Shown here: positions 1 to 40,892 of the stretch, piece by piece
How positions within the stretch are numbered: the first letter of the stretch is position 1
Layout of the letters: each line of letters opens with the position of its first letter
Origin: a virus
Lineage: Duplodnaviria > Caudoviricetes
Strand: one strand, 5' to 3'
Length of the DNA stretch: 64,000 bases
IMG/VR virus record: IMGVR_UViG_3300006143_000333
Location: 1 to 64,000 of that record
Program-made: the position numbers and the translations under genes
The notes under the pieces: model-generated
Told to the model about the DNA's origin: nothing
Seen by the model: only the letters and a program-made list of their open reading frames with translations
The model's database searches: none

Positions 1-265
1 ACTCCACTTCCCATCATATAAGAAGCTTGACCTGGCCCATTTCCATTTACTCCACGAACATTAAGCCTTAAAGAAGAAGAATTACAAATTTCATCTCGAA
101 TCGTTTTAGGAGTCACACTAGAATCAGTTAAATTAGCAACAAGCATGGCATAAGAAACAGCCATACAACCACTACCAGCCATATTACTTTTAGAAACATC
201 ACAATAACCAATGTCCCTATACTCTCCTTGAAGATAACTTACTTCCTTAAAAGCCTTTGGTTTAC
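1..265 (-). CDS. Partial C39-like cysteine peptidase domain (runs off window start)
   Basis: Minus-strand translation SYLQGEYRDIGYCDVSKSNMAGSGCMAVSYAMLVANLTDSSVTP has the Q...GC...AM...TP pattern of C39-like peptidases. Confidence 0.4.
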
Positions 266-267
266 AA

Positions 268-369
268 GAAGAAGCAGAAACATTAGATAGATATTGTAAA
301 GAAAAAGGACATACTAAAGCTGGATTTATCAGGCAAGCAATAAAAGACAAAATGGAAAGAAATGAGTAG
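268..369 (+). pseudogene. C-terminal part of a ribbon-helix-helix regulator, no start codon
   Basis: EEAETLDRYCKEKGHTKAGFIRQAIKDKMERNE*; in-frame stop at 235 with no start in between; followed by a terminator hairpin. Confidence 0.5.
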
Positions 370-412
370 AACATATAAAAATATTATATGTTCTATTTTT
401 TTACGCATAAGA

Positions 413-502
413 ATATTAGTACTAATATACATACTGCACAAATTATTGTGATAAATATTAGTACTAATGTATATTGAAATTATATTAGTACCAATATATA
501 AT
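413..502 (+). promoter_or_regulatory. SigA promoter with three palindromic operators (module 1)
   Basis: TTGAAA 474-479, 17 bp, TATAAT 497-502; ATATTAGTACTAATAT-type palindrome repeated three times, one between -35 and -10. Confidence 0.75.
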
Positions 503-731
503 AGAGACAGTTAAAGGAACAGCAACAAACCTTTAACAGCGCACATTGATAAGATAACTTGAAAATCATTTTAAACAGTTTCCCCAGGGTGCGGGCAATC
601 GGATCTGTATTATAGGCGTATCGGTTTAAAACACTTTATTTAGAAAGTTACCTATATATGCGGAGAAGAGGAGACAAAGTAGCAAGGCAAGGAAATATGA
701 AGAATGAAAGAGTATGGTTTGACCATCTGTC

Positions 732-788
732 CCACAAATTCCTTAGCTAGGAATTAAGCCGATGTGATGAACGGCTGCGCAAGTGTGG
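732..788 (+). ncRNA. Unrecognised three-way-junction RNA motif, copy 1
   Basis: CCACA/TGTGG, AATTCC/GGAATT, AGCCG/CGGCT stems; homologous to 21686-21746 and 23080-23133 with covarying stems. Confidence 0.65.
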
Positions 789-794
789 TAGTCA

Positions 795-867
795 TTGTTA
801 TAATGCAGCCTGAAAGCCTGAACAACTTTCAGACAGTCCACAGCCTGTTAAATGCAGATGGTAATAA
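795..867 (+). ncRNA. Twister ribozyme (P1 type)
   Basis: P1 TTGTTA/TAATAA, UAA-UGCA-GC, P3 TGAAAG/CTTTCA, P4 loop UCCACAGC, UGCA-GA-UGG; pseudoknot CCA/UGG covaries with CCC/GGG in copy 2. Confidence 0.85.
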
Positions 868-926
868 GTTCTTGAAAAAGTTGTGAAATCTGATATAATA
901 GGAAATGTACAAAGGAGTGAATCAGA

Positions 927-1163
927 ATGGCGAATAATACATATGATATGGTAATGAGTGGGAAAAGTGACAATAATATTCGCTTTAATGATTTACGAAA
1001 AATGCTAGATTCTTTAAATTTTGGGTATAGAGTAAAAGGAGATCATTTCATATATTATAGGGATGATGTACCAGAAATCATAAATATACAACCAAGAGGG
1101 AATAAAGCCAAAGGTTATGAAGTAAAGCAAATACGCCTATTATTTAGACAGTATGGCATATAA
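927..1163 (+). CDS. hicA: HicA family toxin
   Basis: IRFNDLRKML...KGDHFIY...INIQP...AKGYEVKQ; promoter TTGAAA 872/TATAAT 894; upstream of hicB. Confidence 0.85.
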   Translation: MANNTYDMVMSGKSDNNIRFNDLRKMLDSLNFGYRVKGDHFIYYRDDVPEIINIQPRGNKAKGYEVKQIRLLFRQYGI

Positions 1164-1175
1164 GGAGGTTTAAGT

Positions 1176-1385
1176 GTGGCAAAATATTCTATGATTGTTT
1201 CATGGTCTGAAGATGATAATTGTTATCTCGTTTCTGTGCCTGATCTTCCCGGATGTATGGCAGATGGAGAAACGCCACAAAAAGCGGTAGAAAATGCACA
1301 AGTAATTATTAATGAATGGATAGAAACGGCACAAATGTTAGGAAGGGAAATTCCAAAACCTTCATTTTCTGCTATGCAGGTATAA
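1176..1385 (+). CDS. hicB: HicB family antitoxin (short form)
   Basis: YLVSVPDLPGCMADGET...GREIPKP HicB signature. Confidence 0.9.
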   Translation: MAKYSMIVSWSEDDNCYLVSVPDLPGCMADGETPQKAVENAQVIINEWIETAQMLGREIPKPSFSAMQV

Positions 1386-1547
1386 AAATTATGATGAAAT
1401 TTATAAAGAAACTTGTTCTTGCATGGGATCCAGATTATACAAAGGTTACACATGCAGAAAGAAAAGAACTGGAAGAAGCTGAAAAGGATATTGCAGAGAA
1501 TGGAACAATATCACATGACGCTATAAATTGGGATTGATGGGGGGGCG

Positions 1548-1781
1548 ATAAAGATATTTTCAAATGTTATACGTAAGATATTAGAAGATTGCAAAGACGA
1601 AGGGAAAAAGGTTACACAAGTAGAACTTGCGAACGTTTTAGGAATCAGTAAACAAGGATTTACGAATAAAATGACAAGAGATAGTTTTTTCATAGATGAT
1701 GTTGTAAAGATTGCTGATTATCTAGGGATGCAAGTTGTTTTAAAAGGTGAAAACGAATATGTTATTAAAAAGGAAGATTAA
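1548..1781 (+). CDS. XRE-family HTH regulator (non-canonical start; absent from ORF track)
   Basis: IKIFSNVIRKIL...VTQVELANVLGISKQGFTNKMTRDSFFIDDVVKIADYLG; G-rich RBS followed by ATA. Confidence 0.75.
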   Translation: MKIFSNVIRKILEDCKDEGKKVTQVELANVLGISKQGFTNKMTRDSFFIDDVVKIADYLGMQVVLKGENEYVIKKED

Positions 1782-1802
1782 AATATTTAGTCTTCTTTTT
1801 TT

Positions 1803-1905
1803 GTGCAACAAAATAGATACACAAAAAGTGTATTATATGCACAAATATTTGGTAAACATTTTGTGTATTATGTCAATGGATAATAGTACACAAATAGTGT
1901 ATCAT
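1803..1905 (+). promoter_or_regulatory. Promoter with TACACAAA..GTGTA operators (module 2)
   Basis: TGGATA 1877, 17 bp, TATCAT 1900; followed by the same AGACAGTTAAAGGAA leader start as modules 1 and 3. Confidence 0.6.
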
Positions 1906-2090
1906 AAAGACAGTTAAAGGAAAGCAATAAACCTTTAGCAAAGCACATTGACAACTTCATAGCTCATACCGTTGATAATAAGACTATAGCCCCAGATAAC
2001 ATATGGATAGTGCCATAAGGGTTATACAGAAATACGCATGGAGGGAATAAACCAATGAACATGTAAGGAAGGGTAAACGGAAGTTGAGTG

Positions 2091-2163
2091 TTGTTATAAT
2101 GCAGCCTGGAAGCCTGATCAACTTTCAGACAGTCCCAAGCCTGGAAAATGCAGAGGGTAACAA
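2091..2163 (+). ncRNA. Twister ribozyme (P1 type)
   Basis: TTGTTA-UAA-UGCA-GC-C...CAG UCCCAAGC CUG...UGCA-GA-GGG-TAACAA matches the twister consensus; predicted cleavage after U2097. Confidence 0.9.
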
Positions 2164-2230
2164 GGCACTTGAAAAAGTTGTGAAATCTGATATAATAGAA
2201 TTACCAAATAAGAAACGGAGGTATGTTATC

Positions 2231-2413
2231 ATGACTGAAGGCGAAATGTTAAAATTGTCAGTAGAGGAATTCTCTAGAATTCAAAGATATATGATGATAG
2301 CGGGGAAAGATTCAGAAGTATATAAGGCAATGAAGGAAAGATATATTGATCTTAAAGTTATTTTAACTTCATCTGGCGTGAATTTAACTGAAATCGACAG
2401 AATAAAAGAGTAG
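2231..2413 (+). CDS. Hypothetical protein, 60 aa (start corrected from 2084)
   Basis: GGAGG RBS before ATG 2231; upstream part of the called ORF overlaps the ribozyme and a promoter. Confidence 0.65.
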   Translation: MTEGEMLKLSVEEFSRIQRYMMIAGKDSEVYKAMKERYIDLKVILTSSGVNLTEIDRIKE

Positions 2414-2419
2414 GGGGCG

Positions 2420-2641
2420 ATAAAGATTACTATAGGAGAAAAAATAAAAGTAATTTTAGAATATCGTCATATGACAGTGCAGGAGTTATCTATAAAAATG
2501 GGTTATAATAGTCCATCTGCACTATATAACAGATTTAAGCGTGATAATTTTTCGGAATCTGATTTACAAGAGATATGCAAGATTTTAAATTGTTCATATG
2601 ATGTTATTATTAAAATGAATGACACGGGAAAAGAAGTTTAA
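2420..2641 (+). CDS. XRE-family HTH regulator (non-canonical start; absent from ORF track)
   Basis: IKITIGEKIKVILEYRHMTVQELSIKMGYNSPSALYNRFKRDNFSESDLQEICKILNC; paralog of 22700-22921. Confidence 0.75.
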   Translation: MKITIGEKIKVILEYRHMTVQELSIKMGYNSPSALYNRFKRDNFSESDLQEICKILNCSYDVIIKMNDTGKEV

Positions 2642-2684
2642 AGACTATTGGCAGAAAAGCAATAGTCTTTTTCTTTATTTTGTA

Positions 2685-2748
2685 ATATCACAAAAATGTG
2701 AGAGAATATCACAAAAAGTATTGACATATCACAAAAACGTGATATAAT
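2685..2748 (+). promoter_or_regulatory. SigA promoter with ATATCACAAAAA repeats (module 3)
   Basis: TTGACA 2721, TG-n-TATAAT 2743; three ATATCACAAAAA copies. Confidence 0.75.
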
Positions 2749-2908
2749 AAAGACAGTTAAAGGAACGGAAACGAACCAATAACAGCTCACAAGATAGGGT
2801 TATCCAATCCGAATAGTCAACATGCGTTCTTGTGGGTATATCTATGAATATTCCTGAAAGATGCCGAAACAGGCAGCGAATACCGTAGATTGAACTTTGA
2901 CAATTTAA

Positions 2909-2963
2909 TCTTGTCTATATGGTAAAAGTCCATATACTGATGACGGCATGAGCCGAAACAAGA
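2909..2963 (+). ncRNA. Hammerhead ribozyme (type III)
   Basis: Stem III TCTTGT/ACAAGA, GUC triplet (cleavage after C2915), stem I TATATGG/CCATATA, CUGAUGA core, stem II GGC-ATGA-GCC with one extra C, GAAA. Confidence 0.85.
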
Positions 2964-2977
2964 AAGGAGAAAATCGT

Positions 2978-3592
2978 ATGAGTAAAAAAGCAATAGATTT
3001 TACACAGATAGACAAAAAAGCAGTGGTACAGCTTGAAAAATTTTCAGAAACAAGAATCGCCATTGCAAAAGAAGAACAACGGCATAAATCAATTATGGTT
3101 CCTCTTAAAAAGAAGTTAGAATCAATCTATGAAAGCCGTGAAAATGATATAAAAGCAGGAATGCCGATTGATGAAGTTTTAACAAAATTCCCGACTATTG
3201 AAGTAGATAAAGCAATTAGAGCAGAAAATATTTTACACAAAGAAATTATGCAACCGTTAAATTTTGAATTAAATTCTACATATAGTTTTATTCCTGACGG
3301 ATTATATACAGGATATGTTACAAAAATAGAAAAACAGAGACGTGGCGAGTATCTTAAATACATCCAGCGTTTTCTTGAAGATATGGGAATTATAGAAATT
3401 TCACAATCTGCATTATGTAAGTTAGCGGAACAAATTTCGGACAGAATTGGCGTAACAGTAAGTAAAACAAAGAATTTATTAGAAGATGGAGTTTTTTCTT
3501 GTGTTTTAAATAGAAAGCAATTTAACAAATTGTTTATGAGCGTGTTTTGTGACATTTTGGTGCTTAATGGAGTAAAGGTGGCTAATATTTAA
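2978..3592 (+). CDS. Hypothetical protein (start corrected from 2948)
   Basis: AAGGAG RBS directly after the hammerhead; long ORF. Confidence 0.7.
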   Translation: MSKKAIDFTQIDKKAVVQLEKFSETRIAIAKEEQRHKSIMVPLKKKLESIYESRENDIKAGMPIDEVLTKFPTIEVDKAIRAENILHKEIMQPLNFELNSTYSFIPDGLYTGYVTKIEKQRRGEYLKYIQRFLEDMGIIEISQSALCKLAEQISDRIGVTVSKTKNLLEDGVFSCVLNRKQFNKLFMSVFCDILVLNGVKVANI

Positions 3593-4876: not shown

Positions 4877-6106
4877 ATGAGTAACTACATCATGAATTTA
4901 GAAACACAAAAACTTGAATTACATTTTGATAAATCTGATTATATGAGTCTGTCAGACAATTTGAAAAAGGAAATCAAAAGCAATTTCCTTTTTAGTGCTA
5001 AACTTGGAGCATGGGTTAGCCGTGCAAAATTCCCTAACTTATGGAGAGCTGAAGCAGTAGCTAAAAAGTTGGGACTTGAAAACGGCGGGAAAATCGGAGA
5101 AATGTTGACTTTTGCGGAACAGATGGAGCAAAAAGCAGAAAAGGCAGAAGCACGAGCAGAAAGATATGAATGCAAGTCTGAAAAGGCACAGGATAGAGGA
5201 GAAGCGTTACAGAAGCCCATCAACGATATGCATGGCGATATTTCTTTTTTTACTCAGCCGCATATCAATAGCAGTTCTGGACGTGCCTTTACAAATAGAC
5301 GCAATAGAATGTTTGCAGCGTATGATAAAGGTTTTGAAGAATTTAAAAAATCTGAATATTATGCAGAACGTGCAGCAATAGCGCGGCAAACAGCAGAAGA
5401 CACAAAACCGACTGACAAGGGATTTATTGATAGACGGATCAAGGATGCTGAAAAGACAATTAGAGCACAAAAGAAAAATCTTAAAAACTATCAGAACTAT
5501 CTTGAGAGAATTAAAAACGGTGAAGAGATTAAGCTTTACAATGGCGATATCCTTACATTGGAAGTGGTTCAAGGATGGATTGAAGATACAGAATTAATTA
5601 TTGAAAATGCAATCAGTAAATCAATCTACTATCACGAGTGTATGGAAGAAGTTGGAGGCGTTGCATTTTCTAAGGATAATATCAAAGTTGGGTATATTGT
5701 AGAACTTGATAAATGGGGTAAATGCAGAGTTATAAGAACGGGCAAAGTAAATATTTCCTATTCCATCTTGGAAGGCGGGGCGGCTGGATATGGTGGGAAA
5801 GCTGCATATGCACAGATTAAAAGAATCATATCAGAAGAAGTACAGGATAAGCCGGCACACCCATTCAAAGTCGGAGATATTTATACTGTACAGGTATGGA
5901 ATGATGAAAAATGTACCAGAGAGCCAAAAGAATACAAAGTTACGAAAATCACGACAGAAAGAGTTACGTTAAAAGCTGGAGAAGAAAGAGCCTTCAGTCG
6001 GAAACCTAGAAGGTTTAGAGATGGTAACAATAGTTTTTCTTGGGCGATTGGTATTGTTGGTGGACTTGGAGGAACTATTTACAAAAAAGAAACAGAAACA
6101 ATATAA
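4877..6106 (+). CDS. DUF3560-like protein
   Basis: KAEARAERY...QPHI...KSEYYAERAA pattern seen in DUF3560 proteins of mobile elements. Confidence 0.6.
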   Translation: MSNYIMNLETQKLELHFDKSDYMSLSDNLKKEIKSNFLFSAKLGAWVSRAKFPNLWRAEAVAKKLGLENGGKIGEMLTFAEQMEQKAEKAEARAERYECKSEKAQDRGEALQKPINDMHGDISFFTQPHINSSSGRAFTNRRNRMFAAYDKGFEEFKKSEYYAERAAIARQTAEDTKPTDKGFIDRRIKDAEKTIRAQKKNLKNYQNYLERIKNGEEIKLYNGDILTLEVVQGWIEDTELIIENAISKSIYYHECMEEVGGVAFSKDNIKVGYIVELDKWGKCRVIRTGKVNISYSILEGGAAGYGGKAAYAQIKRIISEEVQDKPAHPFKVGDIYTVQVWNDEKCTREPKEYKVTKITTERVTLKAGEERAFSRKPRRFRDGNNSFSWAIGIVGGLGGTIYKKETETI

Positions 6107-20570: not shown

Positions 20571-20909
20571 ATGGTACTACATCATTATAAATCCAATTCT
20601 GGAAAAGATTTAATTTTGGAGTATGTTAAGTCTTTGCCAGATGATGAAAAGACAGATGGATTTTCAGTATTACAATGTTTACAGAATGATGAAATGGATA
20701 AAATAAAATTCAAACGTTGGGAAAAGAAGGTTTATGAAGTATATTTTTATAAGGACAATCGGATATTTTATGTTGTAGCTGATGGAAAGAATATGTATTT
20801 ACTTCATGCTTGCCGGAAACAGAAGAACCAGACAGAAAAGAAAGATAAGAAGATAGTCATAAAAAGAGCTAAGGAAATCGGAAAACTATTAGGCAAGACT
20901 TTTATATAA
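20571..20909 (+). CDS. higB: RelE/HigB family toxin
   Basis: YEVYF...NRIFY...YLLHACRKQKNQT; upstream of an HTH gene. Confidence 0.75.
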   Translation: MVLHHYKSNSGKDLILEYVKSLPDDEKTDGFSVLQCLQNDEMDKIKFKRWEKKVYEVYFYKDNRIFYVVADGKNMYLLHACRKQKNQTEKKDKKIVIKRAKEIGKLLGKTFI

Positions 20910-20930
20910 TAGTATAATAGATAGTAGGAG

Positions 20931-21236
20931 GTGTTGAATATGCCGTTTGTACAAGTCGATATTGATAAAGAAATAGAAAAACATTGTCAAGAATCTCCGT
21001 CATTTGCTAAAGCATGGAATGAAAGTAGAGAAGAATATAAGTTGATCGGAGAAATGATTAGTTTGCGAAAAGCTGAAAAAATTACCCAAGGTCAATTAGC
21101 TGCTATTACTGGAAGTAAACAGCAGGTCATTTCACGGATTGAGAAAAAAGAGAGCAGTCCTTCTTTGAAGATATTCTGTAATATGCTTAATGCTTTGGGT
21201 TATGAATTACAAATTGTGAAAAAGCAAAATTTATAA
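20931..21236 (+). CDS. higA: HigA-type HTH antitoxin
   Basis: LRKAEKITQGQLAAITGSKQQVISRIE. Confidence 0.75.
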   Translation: MLNMPFVQVDIDKEIEKHCQESPSFAKAWNESREEYKLIGEMISLRKAEKITQGQLAAITGSKQQVISRIEKKESSPSLKIFCNMLNALGYELQIVKKQNL

Positions 21237-21380
21237 AAAATGAGGTTTATATTAAAAGTCGTTGATGGAAACATTGACGGCTTTTAAAATACAACATTTT
21301 AATTGATATTAAAAATAATTGAAAACACTTGACAAGATATCAAAAACATGTATAATGATATATGTAAAGGAGGTAAGAGA

Positions 21381-21539
21381 ATGGCAAGACCGAAAAGATT
21401 TCCTGAAAAATTAGTTGTTGGTCTTACTCCTGAAATGAAGGAATTTCTCCAAAAAGAAGCCGAAAAAGAATGTTGTGACATGAATGTAATTGTAAGAAAA
21501 GCAATAGCGGATTATATGGAGAAAAAGAATGACAACTAA
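21381..21539 (+). CDS. Ribbon-helix-helix (CopG-like) regulator
   Basis: MARPK...LVVGLTPEMKEFL...MNVIVRKAIADYM; AGGAGG RBS. Confidence 0.75.
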   Translation: MARPKRFPEKLVVGLTPEMKEFLQKEAEKECCDMNVIVRKAIADYMEKKNDN

Positions 21540-21642
21540 AAAGAAGTAGCTGCTCAGTCTGGACAACTATCAGCTACTTCCTAACCGCCAAACGCTCAAC
21601 ACGTTGACACTTCTATTATATCAATTCTTTAGAAATAGTCAA
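21538..21642 (-). ncRNA. Putative antisense RNA element B
   Basis: Minus-strand TTGACT-16-TATAAT with TG extension; hairpin GAAGTAGCTG/CAGCTACTTC 21543-21580 plus U-run. Confidence 0.65.
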
Positions 21643-21685
21643 CGGAAAAATCCCATTACGATTGAACCTTGACAACTGAATCCAT

Positions 21686-21746
21686 CCGCAACAGTTCTTA
21701 GCTTGTTCTGTAAGGGGTAATACCATAAATCCCCTGTGAAGTGCGT
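21686..21746 (+). ncRNA. Unrecognised three-way-junction RNA motif, copy 2
   Basis: CGCA/TGCG, ACAG/CTGT with TTAGCT in loop, AGGGG/CCCCT. Confidence 0.6.
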
Positions 21747-22143
21747 TATGGAAAAATAAAGAAAGGATTGGTATAAGTATGAAATATACAGTTAGAGCAA
21801 GTAAAAGCGGTTATGCTGAAATTGAGGCGAATAGCGAAGAAGAAGCATTGGAAAAAGCTTGGTGTGCAGATTATAACTGGGAAGAAGATGTATATGATAT
21901 GGAAATTGTAGACGAGTAGGACATATCTTATACATATATGCGGGCGGTAGTTGTCAAAGGCTATCGCCTGATTACAGAAAGCGTTGATATGAAACGCTTT
22001 CTCTTGTCTTATACTTAACAAGTCAAAGAAAGTAGTGTATAATATATCCAATGAAATTAGATATTTATCGTGCATGGCACAAACAACGTATTGACACAAT
22101 TCTTTTCGAGTAATATAATATTGCAAAGGAAGGAGTTGATATT

Positions 22144-22431
22144 ATGGCAACAACTAATGTAACAATGAGAATGGATGAAGATTTAAAAGCTCAATTACAG
22201 GAGCTTTTAGGCAATATAGGAATGGATATGACTACGTTTTTTGTTATGACCGCAAAACAGGCAATCAGAGAACAGGGATTACCATTTCAACCTACTTTAG
22301 AGGTTCCCAATATGGAAACATTAAAGGCTTTTGCAGAAGTGGAAGTTATGAAGGAACATCCTGAATGTTATAAAAGTTATAACAGTTTTCAAGAATTATT
22401 AAAAGAGGTGGAAGACGAATGTACACAGTAA
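22144..22431 (+). CDS. dinJ: RelB/DinJ family antitoxin
   Basis: TMRMDEDLK...IGMDMTT...REQGLPF...PNMETLKA. Confidence 0.85.
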   Translation: MATTNVTMRMDEDLKAQLQELLGNIGMDMTTFFVMTAKQAIREQGLPFQPTLEVPNMETLKAFAEVEVMKEHPECYKSYNSFQELLKEVEDECTQ

Positions 22432-22691
22432 AAGCCACTAACAGATTTAAAAAGGATTTGAAAACTGTTATAAAAAGAGGGTACAATACAAAAATTATGG
22501 ACGCAGTTATTTCTAATCTTGCAAATGGGAAAGAATTAGATGAAAAATACTGTGATCATAATCTTCATGGAGAATGGGAAGGATGTAGAGAATGTCATGT
22601 GCTTCCAGACTGGCTTTTGATATATAAAATTGATGGAAAAGATTTGATATTATATTTAATGAGAACAGGGAGCCATAGTGACTTGTTCTAA
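22419..22691 (+). CDS. yafQ: YafQ family mRNA interferase
   Basis: FKKDLK...DHNLHG...RECHVLPDWLLIY...RTGSHSDLF. Confidence 0.9.
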   Translation: MYTVKATNRFKKDLKTVIKRGYNTKIMDAVISNLANGKELDEKYCDHNLHGEWEGCRECHVLPDWLLIYKIDGKDLILYLMRTGSHSDLF

Positions 22692-22699
22692 AGAAGAAG

Positions 22700-22921
22700 G
22701 TGATCAGAATTACTATACAACAGAAAATTGATATGGCTTTAACATATTCTAATATGACAAAAACAGAGTTGTCTAAAAAATTAGGATACGCTTCTCCACA
22801 AGCGTTTCAAAAGAGATACACGACTGGGAAATTTACGCTTGAAGAGTTGGAAAAAATAGCAAAGGCACTGGGATGTGAATATAGTTCCTGTTTTAAATAT
22901 TCAGACGGGAAAGAGATTTAA
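22700..22921 (+). CDS. XRE-family HTH regulator
   Basis: MTKTELSKKLGYASPQAF; paralog of 2420-2641, with a similar AAGACTA..TAGTCTTTT terminator. Confidence 0.8.
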   Translation: MIRITIQQKIDMALTYSNMTKTELSKKLGYASPQAFQKRYTTGKFTLEELEKIAKALGCEYSSCFKYSDGKEI

Positions 22922-23079
22922 GACTATCAAAAAAATATTGGTAGTCTTTTCTTTATGCTACAGTTTAAATTAAATAGGATAAAATTAAACCGAAATGGAT
23001 AAAATTATATTGACATAATAAACTAAATAGTTTAAAATGAATCCATAAGATTTATTTGAACCTTGACAACCTCATCAGC

Positions 23080-23133
23080 CCGCAACACTTTCGCTGAGTG
23101 TAAGATGAATTGACAAACATCTGCTAAGTGCGT
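23080..23133 (+). ncRNA. Unrecognised three-way-junction RNA motif, copy 3
   Basis: CGCA/TGCG, ACACT/AGTGT with TTCGCT loop, AGATG/CATCT. Confidence 0.65.
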
Positions 23134-23139
23134 AGTCAT

Positions 23140-23198
23140 TGTTTTAACCTACCGATGCACGTCCAAAGTCGTGAGGAAGAAATTATGGGATGGGAACA
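23140..23198 (+). ncRNA. Twister ribozyme (divergent)
   Basis: P1 TGTTT/GAACA, UAA, P4 CACG/CGTG with loop UCCAAAGU, GA-UGG; both pseudoknots compensated (CCA/UGG, AC/GU); P2 imperfect. Confidence 0.65.
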
Positions 23199-23224
23199 TA
23201 TTACATATTCAAGGAGGTTTCAGT

Positions 23225-24157
23225 ATGAGCACAGTTGTAGCAATGAGTGAAGAAACAAGAAGAATGGAACAATTCAACGACATAGTGGCAAACATCAAGC
23301 CACTTATGACTGTTGGAAAAGGAAAGAATCAGAGGGCGATTACAGGAAGCGCAGTTGTTCCGTTGTCTTGTTGCTTTGTGGATTCTCGGTATCAGGGAAT
23401 GAGGACACACAAGCATTTGAATCGGCTAAAGAATAAATGGGATGAACGAAAATTAACTCCTATTATTTTGGTTCCACATCCAGAAGAATACAGATTTGCA
23501 GTTGTAGATGGTCAAGGAAGATGTCTCGTGGCTCCGGAGAAAGGTATGGATCGTCTGAATGCAATTATCCTAATGGATGCACCTGAAGATCTGAATGAGC
23601 GTCTGAAATTTGAAGCAGAATACTTTATAGGGCAGGATTCAGAAGTGGAAAATGTAAAACCACTTGAAAAGCATCTTTCAAGAGTAATCATCGGTGATAG
23701 TGCTGCTGTTTCTTTGGATAAACTTCTGAACAAATATGGAATTAAGTTTGTGGCAACGAAAGGAAACAGAGAAGAATCGGTGCTTGGAAGTTATACAGAT
23801 ACATATTCGATTGTAAAAGTCCATGGCGAAAAATGTCTTGAGTTTATATTTTCAATTATTGAAAATGCTGGATGGAACAAAGAGACTAATGGTTATGCAA
23901 CTTTTGTTATGAGGGCGTTAAGAGAGGTATGGATTGCTCATGCAATTCATAGAGAGTCAATTCATAGTTTCTTGTCAAGAGAATTAAGACAGATTGATCC
24001 TGCTTTATTTAGTGCAAATGCAAAAACTAAATATCCCAAGCGTGACCATAGAGTTTCATGTGTTTTATATATGGAAGACATGGTGTGTAATGGGTTAAAA
24101 ATTAAGAGAAGGATTTATGTTGACGAAAACGGGAAAAAATGTAAGATAGTTGAGTAA
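23225..24157 (+). CDS. ParB/Srx-like N-terminal domain protein (start corrected from 23171)
   Basis: VDSRYQ...FAVVDGQGR; GGAGG RBS. Confidence 0.65.
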   Translation: MSTVVAMSEETRRMEQFNDIVANIKPLMTVGKGKNQRAITGSAVVPLSCCFVDSRYQGMRTHKHLNRLKNKWDERKLTPIILVPHPEEYRFAVVDGQGRCLVAPEKGMDRLNAIILMDAPEDLNERLKFEAEYFIGQDSEVENVKPLEKHLSRVIIGDSAAVSLDKLLNKYGIKFVATKGNREESVLGSYTDTYSIVKVHGEKCLEFIFSIIENAGWNKETNGYATFVMRALREVWIAHAIHRESIHSFLSRELRQIDPALFSANAKTKYPKRDHRVSCVLYMEDMVCNGLKIKRRIYVDENGKKCKIVE

Positions 24158-40758: not shown

Positions 40759-40818
40759 GTAAATTCAAGCGGTTCTGCAAAAATTCATAATATTATAATT
40801 GAATATTTTGACAATTAT

Positions 40819-40892
40819 GGATCTATAGCTCAGTTGGTGAGAGCAATCGTCTCATAAGCGATAGGTCTTGGGTTCGAGTCCCAATAGATCCA
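40819..40892 (+). tRNA. tRNA with CAT anticodon (probably Ile2; Met possible); CCA not encoded
   Basis: Acceptor GGATCTA/TAGATCC, D arm GCTC/GAGC, anticodon loop CTCATAA, T loop TTCGAGT. Confidence 0.9.

Follow-up and report, generated by a model that had tools for sequence, protein, structure and literature searches.

Flaviviral xrRNAs are built on a family-C three-way junction (PMC5760640), and RNase J1 is stopped in vitro by this fold, in which L3 forms a pseudoknot with the downstream strand (PMC5760640). Further xrRNA features are a two-nucleotide pairing between the 5' end and the junction, a U-A-U (or C+-G-C) base triple and a conserved junction C (PMC5760640). RAGATH motifs are candidate RNAs located near genes associated with twister and hammerhead ribozymes (Weinberg et al. 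2015 and 2017, PMC5737381), and they are not described in the main text of PMC5737381. Small phage RNAs with a closing stem and hairpins include the P1/P7 C4 antisense RNA (RF01695; two hairpins plus the closing stem) and int-alpA (RF02996; three-way core). In the lambda nut site (boxA + boxB) and the rrn leader site (boxB-boxA-boxC), boxA is accompanied by a 15-nt hairpin. No work linking twister ribozymes with boxA, no RAGATH motif that would fit, and no report of phage or bacterial xrRNAs was found in the literature searched.

A three-way junction RNA was present in three copies of ~57 nt each on the + strand (731-789, 21685-21746 and 23079-23133) of the DNA analyzed here, the first 64 kb (64,000 nucleotides, hereafter the window) of a 128,958-base IMG/VR virus record that is linear and ~71% complete. 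The copies, which lay where the initial annotation had put them, share one common fold and form a real, uncatalogued and lineage-restricted structured RNA family. They have in common with flavivirus xrRNAs the family-C strand lengths, a similar size (~60-70 nt) and a candidate pairing between the loop of the second hairpin (L3) and the strand downstream of P1 (S4). With RAGATH-type candidate RNAs they share a setting where small accessory genes stand in arrays together with twister and hammerhead-like elements, and the status of a short covarying motif to which no function is assigned. Like C4 and int-alpA, they are small phage RNAs with variable loops, and like the lambda nut and rrn sites they combine a genuine boxA with folded RNA ~10 nt further on, near phage transcript starts.

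The window has a G+C content of ~31% and carries nearly all of its long ORFs on the + strand. Its close relatives were large phages and proviruses; pieces identical to it were found in Eubacterium plexicaudatum ASF492 and in Lachnospiraceae bacterium 1XD21-87, and its hosts are therefore mouse-gut Lachnospiraceae. No plasmid relatives of the region were found, and the sole phage match in the relatives search, an unannotated 176-kb gut phage, aligned to the HicA-like gene region and not to the junction motif. Genes near the junction copies were typical accessory genes, encoding a HicA-like protein, a DUF7659 and a DUF3560 protein, two GmrSD_N/DUF262 proteins and RelB. Those behind the three junction types were unrelated to each other: the promoter of the HicA-like cassette, a 46-aa acidic ORF and a 310-aa protein (function not assigned). 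A link between the junction and the cassette-joint palindromes of this genome was dropped, as none of these palindromes occurred within 1-3300 or 20800-23600.

In copy 1 (731-789, + strand), P1 was formed by 732-736 and 784-788 and P2 by 737-743 and 749-755 around the loop 744-748, followed by the single J23 nucleotide A756, by P3 (757-761/772-776, loop 762-771) and by J31 at 777-783 (GCGCAAG). Copy 2 (21685-21746, + strand) displayed P1 at 21687-21690/21742-21745 and P2 at 21691-21694/21708-21711 with a long loop, J23 being A21712, P3 21713-21717/21731-21735 with the loop 21718-21730, and J31 21736-21741 (GUGAAG). The same elements were found in copy 3 (23079-23133, + strand), with P1 at 23081-23084/23129-23132, P2 at 23085-23090/23096-23101 (loop 23091-23095), J23 at A23102, P3 at 23103-23107/23118-23122 (loop 23108-23117) and J31 at 23123-23128 (GCUAAG).

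The minimum-free-energy structure of each copy folded alone on the + strand was this common three-way junction, and RNAalifold, to which the fold was not supplied, predicted the identical junction. Reverse strands of copies 2 and 3 gave poorer folds. A covariance model built from copies 1 and 3 only recovered copy 2 (19 bits, E=0.014) and no other credible match in the 64-kb window with filters off. Invariance extended to CC-R-CA on the 5' side of P1, to the direct succession of P1 and P2 without an intervening nucleotide, to the lone A that separates P2 from P3, to three pairs of P3 (A-U, G-C and the inner G-C) and to a J31 of the form G-N2-3-AAG followed by UGYG. The P2 loop varied (UAGCU, UCGCU, CCUCU); the consensus TT(A/C)GCT that the initial annotation had proposed for it was not conserved, relative L004 carrying CCTCT.

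Covariation was evaluated on an Infernal alignment of five distinct sequences (the three copies, L004 and L165), MAFFT having misaligned copy 2; the family is too small for R-scape-type statistics. In this alignment, 94.8% of the cells were paired and 8 of the 17 pairs had changed on both sides, while slid controls reached 26-51% paired and none of 500 shuffles equaled the observed pairing and covariation. The covariation of all three stems, noted in the initial annotation, was thereby borne out. Three independent wobble changes, in P2 of copy 3 (U.G), in P3 of L165 (G-C to G.U) and at 23088 in an RNA-library relative of copy 3 (run X4; C>T, C-G to U.G), would be C.A mismatches if read from the opposite strand, and they therefore fit the + strand only.

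The conserved unit is the RNA, as inherited within the transcript. At the loci of the copy 3 type (copy 3, L004 and L162), promoters were unrelated and homology began from about the predicted +1, while homology in all five copy 2-type contexts ran from the box onward, beginning in G019 exactly at TTGACAAC; since homology starts at boxA or at the predicted +1 and promoters or flanks differ, it is the transcript that is conserved. The invariant block of the copy 2 type extended from CAACTGAATCCAT through the junction to TTAT, with both flanks differing. Between the window and G019, no substitution was found in the 81 nt of box plus junction, and the ORF behind differed at ~23% of its positions; this 81-nt identity reflects either strong constraint or a leader module exchanged recently. 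A mouse-gut metatranscriptome, in which DNA carry-over is possible, contained an exact 269-nt contig spanning the box, copy 2 and the start of the ORF. RNA-library contigs bridged copies 2 and 3 unbroken, assembled contigs being of a kind that does not show the ends of molecules.

No known family covered the junction. At the gathering threshold, Rfam 15 reported only a tRNA in the whole window, and no family was placed over any of the junctions by cmscan at E<=10, run both with 2-kb pieces and with pieces of 91-111 nt surrounding the individual copies. None of the Rfam 15 models for known ribozyme classes (hammerhead types, twister, twister-sister, pistol, hatchet, HDV-like, hairpin and glmS) matched the junction at E<=10, and RAGATH, int-alpA, C4, EAR and the other cis-regulatory or phage models gave chance-level scores only, the chance-level Rfam scores being those of CRISPR-DR55 (15 bits), Ysr206 (12 bits) and DdR13 (9 bits). 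The junction thus differs from RAGATH-type candidates, of which no model matched at E<=10, and from C4 (RF01695) and int-alpA (RF02996), whose models were likewise without a match. The comparison with Rfam including RAGATH that the initial annotation had proposed therefore returned no family for any copy, and its description of an unrecognised structured RNA is supported by the three-stem covariation together with the lack of a match in Rfam 15 at E<=10, and also by the + strand wobble changes, the homology beginning at the transcript start and the metatranscriptome contigs of the region. Its interpretation as a whole is supported in part, self-cleavage or protein binding being possible roles. 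A C4-like antisense role for the loops was also considered and rejected: the best complements in the 129-kb phage were 9-11 nt long, at chance level, and off ribosome-binding sites.

The family was small: about six distinct sequences fell into three types, and one further variant was known only as differences in an RNA-library contig. Carriers of the motif were large Lachnospiraceae phages or prophages and gut metagenomes, mostly from mouse. They were sought with descriptors in IMG/VR, in 185,579 species genomes and in JGI/ENA metagenomes, matches being kept if their free segments formed P2 and P3. The copy 1 type had no other occurrence in these scans of IMG/VR, species genomes and metagenomes. 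The copy 2 type was found in phage G004, two Lachnospiraceae genomes and five metagenome contigs (one labelled human gut); it was identical in G004, in the two bacterial genomes and in four of the metagenome contigs, and L165 differed by its single G-C to G.U change. The copy 3 type was found in L004/L028 and in L162. All six real matches of the metagenome scan were near-identical to copies 2 and 3. In IMG/VR, descriptor and linker scans returned sister loci only, the remaining matches being chance occurrences in coding or high-GC DNA, and the P2/P3 pairing test was failed by 75 of 77 CCGCAA-type and all 51 CCACAA-type matches in genome contigs, as well as by all 16 viral CCACAA-type matches. 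An improved model (R2) detected the motif in 2 of 17 related phage records and, over 151 Lachnospiraceae genomes, gave a genuine match in ASF492 only; its four extra Lachnospiraceae matches lay inside conserved coding sequence and were false, and a weak match, L043, was not a junction. By synteny, the motif was present at 1 of 17 loci bearing the gene downstream of copy 3, the others having unrelated leaders.

A GAACYTTGACAAY box preceded copy 2, copy 3 and the hammerhead-like element described below (5 matches, a number reached by none of 100 shuffles). The phage box GAACCTTGACAACTGAA agreed at 15 of 17 bases with the boxA of the host rrn leader (GAACATTGATAACTGAA, L157), a leader in which a hairpin comes before GGAACATTGATAACTGAACAG (~420-476). 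The element is a boxA, and the term boxA-like that the initial annotation had applied to it ahead of copies 2 and 3 was correct. In the host genome, the phage box had exact copies on the phage-like contig C4 only. Intergenic boxes of this kind preceded non-coding stretches (543, 1945), the hammerhead-like element (2894) and the junction (21666, 23060). A looser boxA-like box (TTGAATATTTTGACAAT; window 40800-40892) was observed to end 4 nt before a phage tRNA gene (40819).

The three copies occupy different places in their transcripts. Copy 1 lies ~220 nt into a transcript from an operator-flanked early promoter at 474-502 (region 474-561, + strand; TTGAAA-17-TATAAT), whose leader consists of a hairpin at ~514-545 followed by a boxA-like box at ~543-561. 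Three operator-like repeats, ATTAGTAC(T/C)AAT, were seen at 415-502, overlapping this early rightward promoter in a divergent region beside the leftward ORF 3-374; the promoter is likely repressor-controlled. The stretch 514-561 recurs at 1903-1955 as a repeated module made of the hairpin GTTAAAGG...CCTTTAAC and then GCACATTGA(T/C)AA, its order from hairpin to boxA being that of the host rRNA leader. Copy 2 is located between two ORFs of an operon, and the boxA-like box before it (GAACCTTGACAACTGAATCCA, 21664-21684, + strand) marks the point where homology among unrelated contexts starts. Copy 3 begins ~34 nt past a transcript start, behind a promoter and box at 23010-23070 (+ strand), the promoter being TTGACA-17-TAAAAT at 23010-23038 and the boxA-like box 23058-23070. 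A strong promoter (872-899, + strand; TTGAAA-16-TG-TATAAT) follows the twister of copy 1, and as homology with relative L020 starts at this promoter, the copy 1 junction and its twister belong to the upstream module.

The linker TAGTCATTGTT was exact at 789-799 and 23133-23143. Its 8-nt part TAGTCATT separates the copy 1 junction from P1 of a twister (789-796, + strand) and is repeated identically behind copy 3 (23133-23140, + strand), in two copies whose P2 and P3 differ. Directly after copy 1, a type-P1 twister at 797-865 (+ strand; RF03160) scored 48.1 bits (E=5e-9) and so fell short of the gathering score (67.2), as did a second twister at 2093-2161 with 59.8 bits (E=2e-12). By eye, twister 797-865 has CCA/UGG where twister 2 has CCC/GGG, at positions we take to form a twister pseudoknot, so that the difference would be a compensatory change. 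Near-identical strong promoters were noted within 10 nt of both twisters (872-899 and 2169-2196). Twister ribozymes cleave UAA at its U/A step.

The element after copy 3 (23141-23197, + strand) is twister-like by eye, with P1 GUUU/GAAC, UAA, P2 CCUA/UGGG and a hairpin CACG-UCCAAAGU-CGUG; Rfam gave only a 12.5-bit local match to the twister P4 hairpin/Twister-P5 model. In a relative, its P2 and P1 pairs were kept through the wobble changes 23151 A>G and 23194 G>A (see also L162). It may be a divergent form of twister or a different RNA. The initial annotation had described copies 1 and 3 as joined to a twister by the same linker, which holds for the linker itself and for the twister of copy 1, at its score below gathering, but the element behind copy 3 is not called by Rfam. 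An element in phage L009 (~2895-2960) shares with it GAUG...hairpin...AGGAAGAAA.

The hammerhead-like element (2909; region 2892-2963) displayed by inspection a core of GUC, CUGAUGA and GAAA with three helices. No Rfam hammerhead model reported a hammerhead there, even in a 96-nt scan, so of the hammerhead slot that the initial annotation had placed behind boxA at 2909 the preceding box stands, while the ribozyme is recognised by its core alone. One half of its boxA, GACAA (2899-2903), can pair with UUGUC (2911-2915) of the hammerhead-like stem III/cleavage strand, and such a hairpin would compete with folding of the ribozyme.

Junction strands were of constant class in all five sequences, with J12=0, J23=1 and J31=6-7 nt. 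Lescoute and Westhof reportedly defined, in 2006, family C three-way junctions by a J31 longer than J23. Stacking of P1 and P2 in this family goes with a P3 that bends down beside P1, so that the P3 loop comes close to the strand leaving P1. By its strand lengths, the junction would therefore belong to family C. In all three types, the P3 loop was complementary over 4-6 bp to the tail just 3' of P1. The tail UUAUGG of copy 2 (21746-21751, + strand) is a perfect 6-bp complement of CCAUAA at 21723-21728 (-6.0 kcal/mol, p=0.016), GUCA of copy 3 (23135-23138) can pair with UGAC at 23111-23114 (-4.4 kcal/mol, p=0.02) and GUCAU of copy 1 (791-795) with GUGAU at 764-768 (-3.4 kcal/mol, p=0.09), these p values being taken against random 10-mers for a pairing that was spotted post hoc. 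Each loop preferred its own tail, cross-pairings being close to 0 kcal/mol (combined Fisher p ~0.003, post hoc). Within each type the P3 loop was invariant, while the P2 loop changed freely (L004); the one P3-loop change seen, 23109 A>G, lay outside UGAC. The tail UUAUGGA was changed to UUAUAGG in G019 (also in L163), two G being retained for the CC of the loop. Alternative partners for the tail exist in the 5' flank or in boxA (UCCAU in copy 2, UGAC in copies 1 and 3). The pseudoknot between P3 loop and tail, supported by three sequence types and 4-6 bp, is put forward as a candidate. The P3 loop of copy 3 (AAUUGACAAAC; 23108-23118) was also seen to repeat the boxA core UUGACAA of 23060-23070, the linker GUCA fitting either UGAC.

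We infer the function of the junction as a whole, as we do its pseudoknot and its family-C assignment. The reading we prefer, tentatively, is that of a module for RNA processing or stability that defines RNA ends. In large temperate Lachnospiraceae phages, the junction would serve in cis as a folded domain of ~57-65 nt within the untranslated leaders of cassettes of accessory genes, where it lies between an rRNA-type boxA, a loading signal for Nus factors, and either a twister (or twister-like) ribozyme or a ribosome-binding site. P1 and P2 would be stacked end to end with P3 back along P1, probably locked by base pairs between the P3 loop and the 4-6 nt directly following P1, and a compact, nuclease-resistant knot would be the first-choice mode of action. 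After twister cleavage, the boxA leader RNA set free from copies 1 and 3 would have a tucked-in 3' end with a cyclic phosphate, ~6 nt beyond the pseudoknot, and in copy 2 the fold would protect the message behind it from RNase J, the 5'-3' exonuclease of the host; the RNase J match in the host was above the curated cut-off. The end-defining reading is drawn from the slot behind boxA, held elsewhere by elements that are cut (hammerhead-like, tRNA) or by a long hairpin that could be cut, and from the twister linker present in two types. This equivalence of slots is real, and it fits a processing or stability element as well as a ribozyme. A 3' cap in copies 1 and 3 plus a 5' shield in copy 2 is, however, less economical than one binding role, and the non-coding stretch before twister 2, which folds no better than shuffles (z=-0.66), lacks a comparable fold, so that a 3' cap is no general twister companion here. 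The main rival, possible though doubtful, would make the junction a nut-like partner of boxA; in this reading a phage-specific antitermination RNA, bound by a phage protein or by RNA polymerase, would play the part of lambda boxB or act like HK022 put or Bacillus EAR RNA and, with NusB/NusE on boxA, make the long one-directional gene array resistant to Rho and to intrinsic terminators. The gap between box and junction is 10 nt in copy 2, copy 3 and L004, and the boxA-boxB spacer of lambda nut is 8-9 nt. Box and junction are inherited as one invariant block in five contexts, copy 1 is on the transcript of an operator-flanked early promoter, the host encodes Rho and a NusB-like gene, and the invariant A, G..AAG and P3 A-U/G-C/G-C pairs would suit specific recognition. 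Set against these, the box adjoining copy 1 is degenerate (GGTTTGACCAT, 5 nt away), a good boxA lying 170 nt upstream, and because the slot is filled elsewhere by a hammerhead-like element or a tRNA, adjacency to boxA is a general property of these leaders, not one of the junction. Present in only 2 of 17 related phage records, the motif cannot be a core transcription signal. No N- or Q-like antiterminator or other candidate binding protein was found among the ten neighbouring ORFs scanned, and this reading leaves the conserved linker to the twister without explanation. Unlike lambda nut, moreover, with its 15-nt hairpin, the folded RNA is here a 57-nt three-way junction that is interchangeable with ribozymes or tRNA and missing from most related phages.

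The slot shared with the hammerhead-like element behind boxA would also suit a new class of self-cleaving ribozyme that removes the boxA leader, as the element at 2909 would. Pistol, hatchet and twister-sister were reportedly found by Weinberg et al. (2015) in contexts such as this twister- and hammerhead-rich accessory region, and no known ribozyme model matches the few invariant junction nucleotides amid covarying helices. Self-cleavage is nevertheless unlikely: two of the three types would have it needlessly duplicated by a twister 8 nt downstream, the invariant unpaired bases number just ~6-8 with the P2 loop free to change, and the distribution is extremely narrow, known ribozyme classes being widespread; the RNA-library contigs that bridge the element count weakly in the same direction. 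That the junction is instead an accessory or regulatory domain of the adjacent twister seems quite improbable. In such an arrangement the linker would switch between the P3 loop and boxA or the 5' flank and thereby decide if, and at what point, the twister folds and cuts, for example by coupling cleavage to occupancy of boxA by Nus factors. The identical linkers of copies 1 and 3, the presence of their complement UGAC both in the P3 loop and in the box, the repeat of the boxA core in the copy 3 loop AAUUGACAAAC and the possible pairing of GACAA with the ribozyme UUGUC in the hammerhead-like cassette would all agree with it, but no ribozyme follows copy 2, which is the type found most widely, the helices are just 4-5 bp and the alternatives are not separated by covariation. 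The protective side of the preferred, end-defining reading has a more specific form that we also consider improbable, in which junction and loop-tail pseudoknot would by analogy be the phage counterpart of xrRNAs, a protein-free roadblock behind boxA to 5'->3' enzymes (RNase J, even Rho) that protects untranslated RNA. Neither sequence nor model similarity to flavivirus xrRNAs is seen in the junction (Rfam 15 gave no match at E<=10), nor did the five sequences offer consistent candidates for the 5'-end-to-junction pairing, the base triple or the junction C, for which 2-3 bp lack statistical power; in two of the three types, moreover, the downstream ribozyme would detach the fold from the RNA to be shielded. 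If true, no xrRNA-type element would have been described from a prokaryotic virus before, as far as the literature searched and our knowledge go. A small-molecule-sensing riboswitch, or else a chance or DNA-level repeat, is very improbable. A three-way junction with a conserved core in 5' leaders would be compatible with a riboswitch, yet the three types head unrelated genes, which makes a gene-specific sensor unlikely, and no expression platform (terminator or pairing to the ribosome-binding site) is evident; a chance repeat is excluded by the covariation controls, and a double-stranded DNA site is disfavoured by the strand-specific wobbles and by homology that starts from +1.

The natural role of bacterial twister and hammerhead ribozymes is still an open question, and interest here lies mainly in the way ribozymes, boxA and a new fold are tied into one modular leader. 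Ribozymes and junction are parts of exchangeable leader modules, each starting with a copy of the host rRNA antitermination signal and ending just before the next promoter or gene. This gives a testable picture, from promoter to boxA, to RNA-end-defining element and to message, with a cultivable system in the prophage of Eubacterium plexicaudatum ASF492, a member of the defined mouse flora. Should the fold prove to block nucleases or to cleave itself, a new structural class would be added; binding of an antiterminator would make it the first nut-like site described for Clostridia phages, and failing all of these it is a rare leader motif specific to its lineage.

Some further features of these leaders and their neighbourhood were observed. 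The very acidic 46-aa ORF at 21779-21919 (MKYTVRASKSGYAEIEANSEEEALEKAWCADYNWEEDVYDMEIVDE) lies behind the copy 2-type leader in most contexts, and in L160 the same leader is followed by a different ORF. In relatives L015-L018 (~2870-2990), the leader of the 310-aa gene carries boxA-like TGTACTTTGATAAT or TGAACATTGATAAT and then a long imperfect hairpin with a GAAA loop. Four kb from copy 1, a 409-aa protein (4877-6106) carries DUF3560, weakly matches (E=0.002) a phage ProQ C-terminal-like domain, and is possibly an RNA-binding protein.
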